The notes: generated from the sequence alone by a model not told the origin. Counted from the stretch's first letter, positions 1,320 through 40,410 are shown. The stretch is DNA of 40,453 nucleotides from an uncultured Candidatus Saccharibacteria bacterium (GCA_964459225.1 CAYWKB010000003.1:1-40453); one strand, 5' to 3'. Program-made: numbers and translations.

Positions 1320-4300
1320 TTAGTATCCTTCTTCTATATCGTCTGATTTTAATGTTGCTATCATCTGTTGCTTTGGACTACCTGCAAATCCTGAACCTGC
1401 TGGTATCAAGCGACCGATAATCACATTTTCCATTAGTCCTACTAGATCATCCTCACTTCCGCGTACTGCACTGTTTATAAGTACTCTTGTTGTATGCTGG
1501 AATGATGCTGCTGATAGGAAACTCTTACGTGATAGTGACACTTCAGTAATACCCATAACTACAGGTACTGCTTTTGCTCCATTTCCGCCACTTACCTTTG
1601 CTTTTGCATTTTCTTCTTGTAATTGTAAATCATCAACTATTGTTCCTTCAGATAAGATAGTATCTCCTGAATCCACAACCTTTCTTCTTGAGAACATTTG
1701 CTTCACGATAATTTCAATATGCTTTCTTGCTACTGTTTCACCCTGTAATTCGTAAATCTTACCGACTTCACTAATAACATAATCCTTTGCTTTTTCTGCA
1801 CCTCCGTATTCGAATACCTGATCAATGTCTGCTGATCCATCAGTTAATAGATCACCCTTTTTGACCTTATCTCCAACCTTTACTGTTGCTATACGCTTTG
1901 CTGTAAATGTGTATTCGACTTCTCCTGATTTCTTTCCTTTTGCTTTGTCTTCTATTTCTGCAATTACTTTTATTGTCTTTTCTTTTCCTAAATCTAATAC
2001 TTCTGAAACAACTCCATCAACTGATGCTACTACTGCTGGATTTTTTGGAGTTCTCTTTTCGAAGATTTCCTCAACTCTTGGTAGACCTTGTGTAATATCT
2101 CCTCCAACTGACGCTGTACCTCCGGCGTGGAATGTACGCATTGTAAGCTGTGTTCCTGGCTCACCGATCGCTTGTCCTGCAACTGTTCCAACTGCTTCAC
2201 CTAGTTCAACCAATCTGTTATTTCCTAGATCAACTCCATAACATTGTGCACATACTCCCATAACACTTTTACATGATAGTGGTGAACGTACCTTTACGGC
2301 TGTTATTCCGGCATCTTCTATACTCATTGCTTCTAGCTTTGTTAATAGATGATTTTTCTTAAACAATACCTTACCTGATGCATCTGTTACATCTTCAGCG
2401 ATAACTCTTCCTCTTATGTTTTTTGAAAGTGGAATACTGATACCTGATGCTGTTTGCTTTTTGATTATGATTGAATCCTTTGATCCACAATCATCTTCAT
2501 TTACCATAACATCTTGTGCAACTACGAATAGCTTACGTGTTAGATATCCTGCCTTTGCTGTGTTAAGTGCTGTATCTGTTAGACCCTTTCTTGAACCGTG
2601 TGTAGTAATAAAGTATTCAATAGGTGTTAGACCTTCCTTTGAACAAGAAAGAATTGGGAATTCGATTGTCTCTCCTGATGTTGAAGCGATAAGACCCTTC
2701 ATACCTGCCATCTGAGTAATCTGTGAATATGATCCGCGGGCACCTGACTTTACCATGTCATATACTGATCCCATTTTATCCAATGATCCTGGAATAAGCT
2801 TTTCAACATTATTTTTGGCATTGTGCCATATTTCCATATTTTTCCTCAATCTTTCTTCATCTGTTAGAAGTCCTTCACTAAATTGATTCATAACTTCTTC
2901 AGATTGTACTTTTGCTTTTGAGATAACATCCTTTTTACCTTCTGGAATTACAACATCATCAATACCCCATGTTGTACCTGAATGAGTTGCGTATTTGAAT
3001 CCGAATTTCTTTATACCGTCTAATATTCCTGGAATCTTATCTAGACCATGTGAAATTATCAAATCGTCGATTATTGATGATAGCTTCTTTCTTTCAATTT
3101 CCATATTTATGTATGGATAATCATCAGGAAGTGTTTGGTTAAATAATATACGTCCTACAGTTGTCTCAAATATTTTTCCATCAAATTCCTTAAACTTTGG
3201 ACTATCTGTTGGTAATACCTTTATTTTTGCTCTGTATGATACAACTCCAAAGTTATGGGCTGTAAGTGCTGCTTCTGGACTTTCAAATATTTTACCTTCA
3301 CCATTATCACCATCTACAACCTTAGTTATCCAGAAACATCCAAGCACAATATCAAGTAGCTTTGAAATAATTGTTGGATCACCATTTCCTGGCTTTAAGA
3401 TATTTTTATCTGATGCCATTATTTCTCTTGCTTCCATTTGAGCTTCTTCTCCAAGTGGAACGTGTACGGCCATCTGGTCACCGTCGAAGTCTGCGTTGAA
3501 GGCAGTACATACTAGTGGGTGAACTTGAATAGCATTTCCTTCAATCAATATTGGGCGGAATGCTTGTATACCAAGTCTATGTAGTGTTGGTGCGCGGTTA
3601 AGCAATACATATTTACCTTGTATAACTTCTTCTAGTATTTCCCAAACTTCCTTTGCTCCATCGTCTATTAGCTTTCCTGCTCCACGGATGTTGAATGCTA
3701 ATTCGCGTTTTAGTAGACCTGAAATTACGAATGGTTTAAATAGTTCAAGCGCCATATGCTTTGGCAATCCACATTGATCAAGTGATAGCTCTGGACCTAC
3801 GACGATAACTGAACGTCCTGAATAGTCTACACGCTTACCTAGAAGGTTTTGACGGAATAGTCCACGCTTGCTCTTAAGATTGTCTGAAAGAGACTTTAGA
3901 GCACGCTTTTGAGCCTGTACAGCGGCCGCTCCTGTAGCTGCACCATGTCTTATTGAATTATCAATAAGGGCATCTACTGCTTCTTGTAGAATTCTTTTTT
4001 CATTTCTTAAAATAACATCCGGCGCATCTATTTCCTTTAGTTTTAATAGACGATTATTTCTGTTTATTACTCTTCTGTATAAATCGTTTACATCTGATGT
4101 AGCATAACGACCTCCATCAAGTGCGACCATTGGGCGAAGTGCTGGTGGAATAACTGGAATACGAGTAAGGAACATCCACTCTGGTCTTGTACTAGACTTT
4201 ATCATTGATTTTATAAGAGATAATCTCTTTGAAATCTTATCTGAGTCTATTGAACTTGCTGCTTGTAGATCTGCCTCTAATTTTTCAGCTAATTTAACTA

Positions 4301-36238: not shown

Positions 36239-37123
36239 TCATAATGTTCTTTCTGCCTCTAGAAATTCGTCCAAATCTCCCTCTAAGACTTTTTCAACTT
36301 GCGATGTTTCTACATTTGTCCTATGATCTTTGACCATTTTGTATGGATGAAGTACATACGATCGTATTTGATTTCCCCATTCTATTGATGTTGTCTTGCT
36401 TATATACATTCCTTTTTCTTTTGCTTTTCTTTCATCTTCCATTTGTTTAAAAAGTTTGCCTTTCAAAATATCTAATGCTTTTTCTTTATTTTGTGCTTGT
36501 GATCTTTCGGATGTGACATGTACTGATAGACCGGTTGGCTTATGTACTATTCTAACGGCAGTCTCTCTCTTATTTACATTTTGTCCTCCTGGACCTCCTG
36601 ATTTTGCTATTGAAATTTCAATATCTTTTTCAGGAATTTCAAAATCAGCGCTATTTACTTTTTCAAATTTTGGAATTATTTCAACCATAGAAAAAGAAGT
36701 ATGACGCAATTGCTTTGCATTAAATGGTGAAATCCTCACAAGTCTATGAACACCGCTTTCATTTTTCAATGTGCCGTAAACATTTTTACCTGAAATCTCA
36801 ACTGTAATATTTCTATATCCTCCATGATCATTTGTATGTTCATGCAAAATTTCCATACCCCATCCTTTGTTTTCTGACAATTTTCTATACATTCTAAATA
36901 GTATCGCTGAAAAGTCTTCAGCATCATCTCCTCCTGCACCAGAAAAAATAGTCATAATAGCATCTCCTTTATCAAATTTACCTATACCTTCGAGTGCATC
37001 CTTTTGCTCCTGCAATTCCTTTATCATTGATTGAGCTTTTTCTGAATTATTCCAAAAATCAGGCATTTGCATTGCCATTTCAATTTCAGAAATTCTTTCT
37101 ATTATTTTCTGCTTTGCTTCCAT
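36239..37123 (-). CDS. prfB: Peptide chain release factor 2 (short, 294 aa; no programmed frameshift)
   Basis: SPF specificity motif (RISPFNA), [22 protein letters not shown]. Confidence 0.95.
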
Positions 37124-37384: not shown

Positions 37385-37399
37385 TTTATTTATTTTAAG

Positions 37400-37470
37400 A
37401 GCCAAAGATGAGAATCGGACTCATGTTCTCGCTTTACGAAAGCGATGTTCTGCCACTGAACTACTTTGGC
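37400..37470 (-). tRNA. tRNA-Thr(CGU)
   Basis: GCCAAAG/CTTTGGC acceptor stem, TCGCT-TTCGTAA-AGCGA anticodon arm; T-loop reads TCCGATT. Confidence 0.9.
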
Positions 37471-38619: not shown

Positions 38620-39609
38620 TCATGAATCAGTAATTTTCTTTTTTAACTTCCAGCCGTTGCCATGACTTAAAAGACCAAGATACGACTCGACAACTTCCGG
38701 CTTTTCTTGAGAATCTTTGATTTTCTTGAACATACGATTTTTTGTCGTTGTCCGTATCACTCGATGATATGGAAAATGAACCCAGCCAAGGAAATCTACA
38801 CCCGACGAAGATGTCTTAATAAACACTTTGTCTGGATGAAGAGATAATTTTAATTGCTCACTGAGAAAGCCCTGAACCTTAGGTAAGATTTCCATCAACG
38901 AATCTTTATTGTGTTGCATAATGACGAAGTCATCGGCATACCGAATATAATATTTAGCTTTGAGCTTGTGCTTTACAAACTGGTCAAATTCATTCATGTA
39001 AATATTTACCAAGAGTTGCGAGGTCAGGTTACCTAAAGGCAAACCCTTACCTGGACCAGTACTTTGAAAACTCTCAACAATGCGTTCAACAAGCCAGATC
39101 GTTTCCATATCATTAATATGTCGCTTGAATATTTCAATAAGCTTTTCATGATCAATAGATGCAAAAAACTTTCTAACATCACATTTCAGGACCCAGCATG
39201 CCCTGCTATTACTTTTTGACACTTTCATAACGAAATCATTGAATCGATTTAACGCACGATGTGTTCCTTTAAATTGTCGACAGGAGTAGGAATCATAAAT
39301 AAACTTTTTATCAAAATAGGGATATAAAATCCTGTAAATAGCATGGTGCAATAATCTATCTCGGACCGTAGCCTTGTGAATACTTCTCGGTTTCGGATCA
39401 CTTATCGAAAAAGCTTCGTATGCACCATGTCTATACATTTTTGTTCGCAGTTCCTCATGCAATTTGAAGATACTATGAGAGAGATTCAGAGAAAATTCAG
39501 CAACGTCCTTTTTAGATTTCTTGCCACATATAAATTCGGTCCACGCATCGCATAGATTTTTGATGGATATGATATTCTTATACTCATGACCCATACTAAT
39601 AAGGATCAT
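38620..39609 (-). CDS. DGR-type reverse transcriptase
   Basis: VRDRLLHHA, KCDVRKFFASIDH, GLPLGNLTSQ, YIRYADDF, GVDFLG; uninterrupted; in-frame starts at GTG 39636, ATG 39609 and ATG 39594. Confidence 0.95.
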   Translation of the reverse strand: MILISMGHEYKNIISIKNLCDAWTEFICGKKSKKDVAEFSLNLSHSIFKLHEELRTKMYRHGAYEAFSISDPKPRSIHKATVRDRLLHHAIYRILYPYFDKKFIYDSYSCRQFKGTHRALNRFNDFVMKVSKSNSRACWVLKCDVRKFFASIDHEKLIEIFKRHINDMETIWLVERIVESFQSTGPGKGLPLGNLTSQLLVNIYMNEFDQFVKHKLKAKYYIRYADDFVIMQHNKDSLMEILPKVQGFLSEQLKLSLHPDKVFIKTSSSGVDFLGWVHFPYHRVIRTTTKNRMFKKIKDSQEKPEVVESYLGLLSHGNGWKLKKKITDS

Positions 39610-39980
39610 ATTACCCCCCCCCCCGAGAATTACCACAGGTAATTCTCAAATCGAAAGAGACATATCGTTTTTGGCTCTCTATCTATCGTGATTTTCCGAA
39701 AGTCGAGCGGTATGGAATTGGAAACAAAATTGAACAGGCTTTTCTTGATGTACTTGAATACACATTCTGTCTTTCTTATCTCCCGCCTGAACACAAAATA
39801 CCGATATTGAACAAAGCCATCACAAAACTTGATATTGTGAAGTTCTTTGTGCAACTCGCATGGGAAAGTAAAATTATTCCAACTGATACATACTCGGACT
39901 TAATCGGAAGACTTGAGGAAATAGGGCGACAACTTGGTGGTTGGAAGAAGGGTTTGCAAGCAAAAACTCCCCGACCTTAA
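39586..39980 (+). CDS. avd: Avd-like DGR accessory protein (four-helix bundle), absent from the ORF track; the only plausible ATG is out of frame across a C11 tract
   Basis: Frame 39603-39980 reads ...PPPRELPQVILKSKETYRFWLSIYRDFPKVERYGIGNKIEQAFLDVLE...LDIVKFFVQLAWE...LEEIGRQLGGWKK...*; FPKxERYxIG and EIGRQLGGW are Avd/bAvd-like; ATG 39586 would join this frame with C12 or C9. Confidence 0.85.
39614..39624 (+). repeat. C11 homopolymer (G11 on the TR/RT strand)
   Basis: tta-ccccccccccc-gag read directly. Confidence 0.9.
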
Positions 39981-39999: not shown

Positions 40000-40122
40000 G
40001 TTTCGAGAGAACACCTGGTTGCCATCATCCCACCTGTTCGGGTTATCGACGGAGTTCGCATTGACGTTCCAGCCGTCGTCGTTCCAGTTCACGTTGACCG
40101 CGCGAAGCACCCCAGCGTTATC
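40000..40122 (-). repeat. DGR template repeat (TR) core; boundaries approximate
   Basis: 41 codons DNAGVLRAVNVNWNDDGWNVNANSVDNPNRWDDGNQVFSRN, 11 of them Asn (10 AAC, 1 AAT); GC-rich; next to avd and RT. Confidence 0.88.
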
Positions 40123-40343
40123 GTATACAAGATCATCTATATCACCGCCAGCCAAACCATGACCAGCTGAATTTTATCCGGGACATCAAAGTCCACTAAT
40201 CTCATATACCAATTCTTGTTATTTTTTTGAAGAGACTTTCCCCACTCTCACACAAGGCATACCCAGTGTGACTCTCGAGAAAAATATCCTAAGACCATGA
40301 CGTGAAAGCCGTAACCGTCACGTAACACATGATTTCGGAAATA

Positions 40344-40352
40344 AGTATAACA
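40344..40352 (-). promoter_or_regulatory. Extended -10 promoter candidate for the TR RNA
   Basis: TGTTATACT just downstream of the 40375-40410 terminator; no clear -35. Confidence 0.5.
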
Positions 40353-40368
40353 AGAGAAATTTAAATAT

Positions 40369-40410
40369 AAAAAATTGACCCCCAATCCGCCGAAGCAGAC
40401 TGAGGGTCAA
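40369..40410 (-). terminator. Strong intrinsic terminator of a gene ending at or beyond the right edge
   Basis: TTGACCCTCAGTCTGC-TTCG-GCGGATTGGGGGTCAA (16-bp stem, 3 G-U pairs, cUUCGg loop) followed by T6. Confidence 0.85.

Follow-up and report, generated by a model that had tools for sequence, protein, structure and literature searches.

Introduction

How can an accessory gene that a retroelement seems to need keep its whole conserved body intact and still be out of frame with its own start codon? This question is raised by a 40,453-nt stretch of DNA from an uncultured Candidatus Saccharibacteria bacterium (GCA_964459225.1 CAYWKB010000003.1:1-40453), hereafter called the window, i.e., the whole stretch that was analysed. 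It carries part of a diversity-generating retroelement (DGR), namely the gene of a reverse transcriptase (RT), a template repeat (TR), and, adjoining both of them, the accessory gene avd, whose first codons are followed by a run of eleven C's (C11). The ATG upstream of this run and the Avd body downstream of it lie in different reading frames.

The RT of the Bordetella phage system, bRT, depends on Avd to make cDNA and shows no reverse transcriptase activity in its absence (PMC6182149), so that an out-of-frame tract should silence diversification. An earlier interpretation of this DNA, called here the sequence-only reading, had proposed that changes in tract length switch or throttle Avd. The comparative data support this proposal: about 100 loci hold the tract at the same position, its length differs between otherwise identical contigs, all three frames are found, and loci without a tract are in frame. 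That the tract thereby acts on hypermutation is what we infer from these data. Overall, we consider it rather likely that the C run is a slipped-strand contingency locus switching the translation of Avd, and hence the activity of the retroelement, and we hold with the same confidence that this locus is built into the start of the avd coding sequence throughout a large clade of DGRs of the Candidate Phyla Radiation (CPR, or Patescibacteria).

The C11 tract and the two frames of avd

The tract starts 28 nt after ATG 39586, within the local sequence ATGACCCATACTAATAAGGATCATATTA-C11-GAGAATTACCACAGGTAATTCTC (run at 39614-39624). There is no second C or G run of at least 6 nt anywhere in the 40-kb window, and the observed count of C/G runs of at least 8 nt was matched by none of 100 shuffles of the window. 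Translation from ATG 39586 gives MTHTNKDHITPPPENYHR and ends at TAA 39640-39642. The frame of the Avd body is limited upstream by TAA 39600-39602 and open to the stop at 39978-39980, with no ATG, GTG or TTG before TTG 39807, which lies deep inside the protein. Thus, the sequence-only reading was correct in placing ATG 39586 in another frame that stops at 39640-39642, and in describing a body frame closed by TAA 39600 and lacking a canonical start before the conserved region. It had also stated that C12 or C9 would give a continuous protein of about 131 aa, and arithmetic on the coordinates yields 131 aa with C12 and 130 aa with C9.

A conserved site of variable length

The relatives used for comparison are 119 loci, i.e., the best 80 of 257 GTDB species-genome relatives plus 39 from JGI metagenomes, with Avd identities of 53-99%, plus a few at 42-48%. 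None of the fetched loci is identical to the window, the best reaching about 95% DNA identity over the cassette. Tract lengths and frames were taken from consensus assemblies, and, as the loci share ancestry, clustering at 97% identity lessens their non-independence without removing it fully.

A run of at least six C's occurs at the same site in 99 of these 119 CPR loci, with lengths from 6 to 15 and a mode of 10. Including the window, C6 is found in 3 loci, C7 in 3, C8 in 14, C9 in 23, C10 in 32, C11 in 20, C12 in 4, and C15 in 1. The tract is kept in relatives with 42-48% Avd identity (L113-L118), and its position is conserved although the neighbouring leader sequence varies. The 588,573 nt of fetched loci contain 104 G/C runs of at least 8 nt; a second such run is present only in L015 and L054, both extra runs being off the avd site, and all other loci have at most one. 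In three of the loci that lack the C run, the site is occupied by other repeats, (CT)9 in L062 (about 2970-3000) and short (CA)n in L026 and L038 (about 2985-3005), all of them in frame, which suggests that what is selected is a repeat able to mutate and not a C/G run as such.

Length differences are found between loci that are otherwise nearly the same. L094 and L106 align over 3147 nt with 0 mismatches and differ by one C in the tract; L083 and L087 align over 3266 nt with 2 mismatches and differ by two C's. One C in the tract is the only indel between L091 and L094 (3147 nt, 4 mismatches) and between L102 and L104 (3375 nt, 4 mismatches). Tract length differs in 13 of the 22 pairs whose flanks are at least 98% identical and, judged from these alignments, changes faster than substitutions accumulate. 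The lineage of the window itself includes C11 (the window, L003, L004, L081, L082, and L093), C10 (L002 and L006), C8 (L005), and an in-frame C9 (L001).

Some further observations concern individual loci. An A8/A9 run also differs by one base between L084 and both L083 and L087, whether by a real change or by error, so that some homopolymer length differences exist outside the avd tract. L052 and L064 come from the same metagenome-assembled genome, DeMMO2_29, and their avd 5′ regions are 94.5% identical over 452 nt, with C10 in frame in the former and C8 out of frame in the latter; they could be paralogous cassettes or co-binned strain variants. In L105 (about 1170-1215), C10 is followed by an in-frame 37-nt deletion that removes the hairpin described below and the start of helix 1 (RELPQVILKSKET), and this allele is possibly defective. 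Finally, the contig of L089 ends exactly at the tract, and the scaffolds of L043 and L045 have runs of N at or beside it, as expected if assemblers meet mixed lengths or poor coverage.

Frame states of avd

Frames were called in the 89 loci with an unambiguous upstream ATG, the window included. Read modulo 3, as the sequence-only reading had suggested for CPR homologues, the tract places the Avd body in all three frames: 19 loci are in frame, 35 have the body in +1 (one C too many), and 35, the window among them, have it in -1 (one C too few). When weights are given by cluster (74 clusters at 97% identity), these counts become 15.7, 32.0, and 26.4, respectively. Short runs (C6-C8) are also mostly out of frame. 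By comparison, all 7 loci that lack the run are in frame from the upstream ATG, versus 19 of the 89 with it (Fisher p = 5.5e-5).

A gain or loss of one or two C's would bring each of the 70 out-of-frame loci back into frame, the ORF of the body being intact, and in 46 of these loci there is no ATG, GTG or TTG in the body frame before the conserved Tyr. Val after the tract is encoded mostly by GTA, GTC or GTT; GTG occurs only sometimes. The window and its relative L005 (C8) are both out of frame, and both have an intact Avd and an intact RT. In L005, all differences between the TR and the variable repeat (VR) fall at TR adenines, which is the hallmark of DGR mutagenesis, and the TR of the window aligns to that of L005. 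This record of past adenine mutagenesis, together with the intact genes, argues that out-of-frame lineages are not decaying pseudogenes.

The Avd protein and its N-terminus

The body encoded after the tract matches PF22296 bAvd (3.4e-12, 47.3 bits, over the 40-bit cut-off) and NF033474 DivGenRetAVD (2e-16, 60 bits, under the 80-bit cut-off), and by these profile matches the window Avd is a divergent member of the Avd family. The AlphaFold2 prediction for the repaired protein has a pLDDT of 88 and helices at residues 18-34, 39-63, 68-94, and 100-127, the four-helix assignment being that of the model. Residues 1-17 are unstructured in the model and lie outside the bundle that starts at residue 18, so the N-terminal extension is, as modelled, a leader and not part of the Avd fold. 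The NCBIfam Avd profile starts near Pro-Gln-Val, after the tract, leaving the extension outside.

A database search returned many full-coverage homologues of 129-131 aa for the repaired Avd. The N-termini of in-frame homologues follow the pattern M[TI]H..K..IT-P(1-3)-RELPQVILK, and in-frame alleles of many lineages have the same type of short extension. Since full-length homologues share this order of leader, prolines, and body, the fusion across the tract is, by these alignments, the ancestral reading frame of avd. A protein-level need for poly-proline was considered and ruled out: loci without the tract have 0-2 prolines in this unstructured region, and CCC is the rarest proline codon (7.7% in the window's long ORFs). 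The run is therefore not accounted for by proline coding.

As gene callers are unable to read across the frameshift, some three quarters of these avd genes have probably been annotated wrongly, as truncated or absent. Database Avd entries of 101-120 aa, which start at MKETY, M/VILK or L/MPQV, fit such mis-annotation as judged at the protein level.

A covarying hairpin directly after the tract

A hairpin begins with the first base after the C run (Table 1). Its RNA fold has a predicted energy of -12.7 kcal/mol (z -8.1) on the + strand and -13.7 kcal/mol (z -3.0) on the - strand, and in the window the premature stop TAA sits in its 3′ arm. The arms are different in other clades, namely GAGAAGCAC/GTGCTTCTC, GAGGATTAC/GTAATCCTC, GAGGATTGC/GCAATCCTC, GTGAATTAC/GTAATTCAC, and GGAGCAC/GTGCTCC. 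Among 50 distinct sequences, both sides change in 6 of the 9 pairs, and the 32 double-change cells, versus 9.6 in shuffles, were reached by none of 500 shuffles; in slid controls, pairing falls to 25-53%. As the changes replace amino acids pairwise, selection acts on the structure at the nucleic-acid level.

Regarding the strand on which the hairpin acts, G-U pairs give 20 compatible cells for + and 12 for -, or 6 and 2 in well-paired sequences, which are too few to decide. The hairpin is weaker in the most distant clades, and it is retained in the tractless loci L060 (8 of 9 pairs) and L070 (7 of 9 pairs). It could make the ribosome pause and slip more readily on the C run, belong to the RT leader, or promote replication slippage.

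The tract and the divergent RT start

On the opposite strand, the tract is a G run that precedes the RT gene, whose start overlaps that of avd. The relatives keep the same start overlap, as ATGNNNCAT or CATATG. The sequence-only reading had held that the tract would leave the RT unaffected, given two in-frame ATGs (39609 and 39594) that the RT gene has beyond the tract in its own direction. Both ATGs are confirmed, and the RT frame of the relatives excludes the tract: the first RT Met always lies 13-50 nt past the G run, and a stop intervenes in 10 of 29 loci. A mechanical ORF of 338 aa, running from GTG 39636 through the tract read as GGGG, was ruled out for two reasons, namely this intervening stop and the fact that the tract shifts by non-multiples of 3 between loci with identical flanks while the RT stays intact; the start at GTG 39636 is thus probably not used. 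The spacing of 13-50 nt to the conserved RT Met also rules out the G run as a Shine-Dalgarno sequence for the RT.

No sigma-70-like promoter across the tract came up in the consensus scan, and manual reading gave nothing better than weak -35 matches. In the window as in its relatives, avd is inverted between TR and RT with overlapping starts, an arrangement in which the promoter of each gene must lie inside the other gene.

Proposed switch and alternative explanations

The mechanism that we favour would work as follows. Translation of Avd would start at the ATG that overlaps the divergent RT start, and the ribosome would read a short unstructured leader, the C run as 1-3 prolines, and then the four-helix body. 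We infer that slipped-strand mispairing during replication adds or removes C's and so moves the body among three frames, of which only one would give full-length Avd. The C11 of the window would be an OFF state, with the body in -1 and translation stopping at TAA 39640 inside the hairpin, and C12 or C9 would be ON. Out-of-frame alleles would lose Avd and with it retrohoming, so that the ability of a cell lineage to diversify its target protein would depend on the state of the tract. Slippage of RNA polymerase or of tRNA-Pro on the C run may make OFF alleles leaky. An expressed Avd would be expected to carry the N-terminal peptide MTHTNKDHITPP(P)R. In metagenomes, DGR clade 2, which is restricted to CPR, was reported to show lower-than-average activity (PMC8144416), which fits a switch that is mostly off.

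The pattern behind this proposal, i.e., a mutable repeat inside the reading frame at a conserved site, length polymorphism with identical flanks, shifts among three frames with the genes intact, and repeat-less loci that are in frame, is that of a contingency locus. Several points weigh against it. The evidence consists of consensus assemblies, and the need of this CPR RT for Avd is extrapolated from the Bordetella phage system. In-frame alleles are somewhat rarer than the third expected by chance (21% when cluster-weighted, binomial p about 0.04), which could mean that the DNA frame is of no consequence, expression being rescued at the level of RNA or the ribosome. As the N-terminal extension is unstructured and outside the family profile, the fold would be complete even if Avd started after the tract. 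Moreover, ribosomal frameshift signals have this same layout of a run with a conserved hairpin right behind it, and the G run, lying 13-50 nt upstream of the RT start as well, could act on RT expression instead.

Three other explanations were weighed. It is conceivable, though we think it unlikely, that Avd is made from all DNA states by recoding, through stutter of RNA polymerase or a +1/-1 slip of tRNA-Pro on CCC, with the hairpin pausing the ribosome and tract length setting the level of Avd; such recoding may coexist with the switch as its leakiness. The +1 slippage of tRNA-Pro at CCC-C is well documented, and a slippery run directly followed by a covarying structure is what a programmed ribosomal frameshift calls for. 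The majority of out-of-frame consensus states, the slight under-representation of in-frame ones, and the adenine mutagenesis in the out-of-frame L005 agree with recoding too, as do the leaky OFF states that frameshift suppression produces in a phase-variable Mycoplasma gene (bioRxiv 10.64898/2026.04.01.715767). However, known programmed frameshifts keep one direction across homologues, whereas here +1 and -1 are equally frequent (35 each) and 19 alleles are in frame, so that a classical programmed frameshift is unsupported. Runs of C6-C8, on which slippage should be inefficient, are mostly out of frame as well, and the hairpin persists in the tractless L060 and L070 and is therefore not tied to recoding. 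To our knowledge, efficient transcriptional slippage in bacteria is documented for A/T runs and not for C/G runs; the programmed form, marked also by heterogeneous RNA lengths, has an A/T run of at least 9 nt in a conserved out-of-frame layout, unlike the C/G run and varying frames found here.

We regard as less probable still that the tract is not translated at all, with Avd starting at a non-canonical codon after the run, such as ATT 39642, and the run acting in a control region shared by RT and avd, via promoter spacing or a 5′ untranslated region, on transcription or on translation of the RT. The sequence-only reading had named such a start as an alternative; it is retained here, although no consistent start codon was found after the tract. 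The unstructured residues 1-17, a family profile that begins after the tract, and a G run that in all examined loci precedes the RT Met by 13-50 nt speak for it, as do a -10-like TAATAT that follows the run in the RT sense (by manual reading, not by the scan) and the single base shared by TAA 39640 and ATT 39642. Yet the upstream ATG is kept in frame in 7 of 7 tractless loci, one type of extension is shared by in-frame alleles across many lineages, 46 of the 70 out-of-frame loci have no canonical start there, and the Val codon is mostly not GTG. Furthermore, ATT 39642 lies inside the hairpin with no Shine-Dalgarno-like sequence before it, and the consensus scan revealed no promoter spanning the tract. 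Least probable, and in our view very unlikely, is a homopolymer error of sequencing or assembly, another possibility raised by the sequence-only reading, in which case avd would be intact and ordinary, with a true tract of C12 or C9. Sequencing is more difficult in long C/G runs, the assemblies of L089, L043, and L045 break off or contain N's at the tract, and one A8/A9 run likewise varies between near-identical contigs. Nevertheless, C11 recurs in five other, separately deposited contigs from lineages with about 95% DNA identity to the window (L003, L004, L081, L082, and L093, some of which may share lake data), and C8, which short-read platforms call reliably, is commonly out of frame too. 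The out-of-frame share of the 89 loci, which come from many studies, is about 79%, far above consensus error rates, and near-identical pairs show no indel other than the tract over 3-4 kb.

Organization of the DGR cassette and its surroundings

The features of the cassette are listed in Table 1.

Table 1. Features of the DGR cassette in the window (positions counted from the first letter of the window)
Feature	Positions	Strand	Basis
DGR reverse transcriptase, from ATG 39594	38620..39594	-	PF00078 at 1.9e-27
Overlapping divergent starts ATGACCCAT, 9 nt: avd ATG 39586-39588 (+), RT ATG 39594-39592 (-)	39586..39594		
avd 5′ segment: ATG 39586, variable N-terminal codons, tract, premature stop TAA 39640-39642; 18 codons	39586..39642	+	
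C11 homopolymer in avd sense (G11 in RT sense); hypervariable tract	39614..39624	+	sequence; homologous tract of 6-15 C in 99 related loci
Avd body (four-helix bundle, predicted), in -1 with respect to ATG 39586; begins with CGA, the Arg of RELPQ, and ends at the stop 39978-39980	39624..39980	+	
Hairpin directly 3′ of the tract, avd sense: GAGAATTAC-CACAG-GTAATTCTC; about 9-10 bp	39625..39647		RNA fold and covariation
Terminator-like GC hairpin and T run, directly after TR, overlapping the avd stop codon	39967..39989	-	consensus scan only
Template repeat (TR), AAC-rich, RT strand	about 40000..40125	-	alignment with TR and VR of L005
Structured RNA resembling Rfam RT-9, upstream of TR	40214..40325	-	31.9 bits, E 0.0096; gathering score 46.1

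There is no VR inside the window, the target gene lying beyond 40453; both the VR and the target gene are seen in L005, where the target gene with its C-terminal VR, the TR, and the RT are on one strand, and avd lies between TR and RT on the opposite one. Sub-threshold RT-9-like matches (32-35 bits, against a gathering score of 46.1) occur at the same place in three loci, between the target gene and the TR and on the DGR strand, i.e., at 40214-40325 in the window, 3597-3708 in L005, and 3600-3712 in L022, all (-). This element may be a structured leader of the TR RNA. Upstream of it are a second terminator-like hairpin (40375-40410 (-)) and then a promoter-like site (40344-40371 (-)). Such terminator- and promoter-like sites suggest that the TR RNA is a separate short transcript, in which case the RT would need its own promoter inside the antisense avd.

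The similarity of the window to its closest relatives (about 95%) starts at the 3′ end of the RT gene (38631) and is absent further left, where a tRNA-Thr gene is found at 37399-37470 (-). The different genomic contexts in close lineages suggest that the DGR cassette is mobile. Further away, a gene for release factor 2 (36239-37123 (-), SPF motif) encodes only 294 aa and starts about where Escherichia coli release factor 2 resumes after its programmed +1 frameshift. The gene upstream of it, with an Ogt-like PCHRV motif, ends 13 nt before, which leaves no room for the usual short first ORF.

Comparison with known systems

Phase variation in Campylobacter depends on intragenic and intergenic G/C tracts (PMC8355987). 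Like the contingency loci of Campylobacter jejuni, Helicobacter pylori, and Neisseria, the avd tract is a G/C run of 8-12 nt in the 5′ coding part of a gene in an AT-rich genome, with a modal length of 9-10, polymorphism among near-identical strains, and frame shifts by one base. Unlike them, it putatively switches an accessory subunit of targeted hypermutation and not a surface or restriction-modification gene, it spans broad CPR lineages, down to about 45% Avd identity, where theirs are found at the level of species or genus, and it is abutted by a covarying hairpin; for avd, reversible switching is a proposal.

The cassette resembles the DGR of Bordetella phage BPP-1 (avd-TR-brt) in the Avd family, the four-helix bundle predicted for Avd, the DGR RT, the AAC-rich TR, and the adenine-specific differences in the VR, the latter seen here in relatives. 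It differs from BPP-1 in that avd is inverted between TR and RT, has a start overlapping that of the RT, and carries the tract-bearing N-terminal extension; we know of no such repeat in BPP-1 avd.

Homopolymers that are rescued by slippage form another group for comparison. In the endosymbionts Buchnera and Blochmannia, poly(A) frameshifts are rescued by transcriptional slippage, and programmed slippage operates in dnaX and insertion sequence (IS) elements. As in these cases, the avd tract is a homopolymer that puts an essential-looking ORF out of frame, the gene being otherwise intact, but theirs are A/T runs in one fixed arrangement, whereas the avd run is C/G and takes three frames among close relatives. 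A further parallel is mod of Mycoplasma bovis, a restriction-modification gene with an (AG)n repeat, whose low, frame-dependent OFF expression was tested in E. coli (bioRxiv 10.64898/2026.04.01.715767). Both concern an intragenic repeat in a minimal-genome bacterium, leakiness of avd being a proposal; in contrast to mod, the avd repeat is a poly-C in a DGR accessory gene and is described here from sequence.

In the literature searched, nothing joins DGRs or Avd with homopolymers, simple-sequence repeats or frameshifts, with a prior mention in the first CPR DGR survey, Paul et al. 2017, being possible, and nothing was found on phase variation in CPR bacteria. DGRs and repeat switches are each known; as far as this literature shows, a repeat switch built into a DGR and conserved across a radiation is new.

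Significance

The broadest form of the proposal is that a selected hypermutable repeat, poly-C or occasionally (CT)n or (CA)n, makes the DGR phase-variable, together with the hairpin, in hundreds of CPR species, and on this we see the case for and against as evenly balanced. Uncontrolled mutagenesis of the target protein is costly. If the proposal is true, the tract would offer a simple means of control, both heritable and reversible, without any regulator protein, which would suit the minimal genomes of CPR bacteria, and it would be the first documented contingency locus in this large, uncultured radiation according to the searched literature. It would also explain the apparent lower activity of the CPR-specific DGR clade in metagenomes. 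Metagenomic reads give access to tract length modulo 3, which can then be compared with VR diversity. For these bacteria, the switch would amount to a two-tier form of evolvability, in which a stochastic and heritable event picks the lineages that run a targeted hypermutator.

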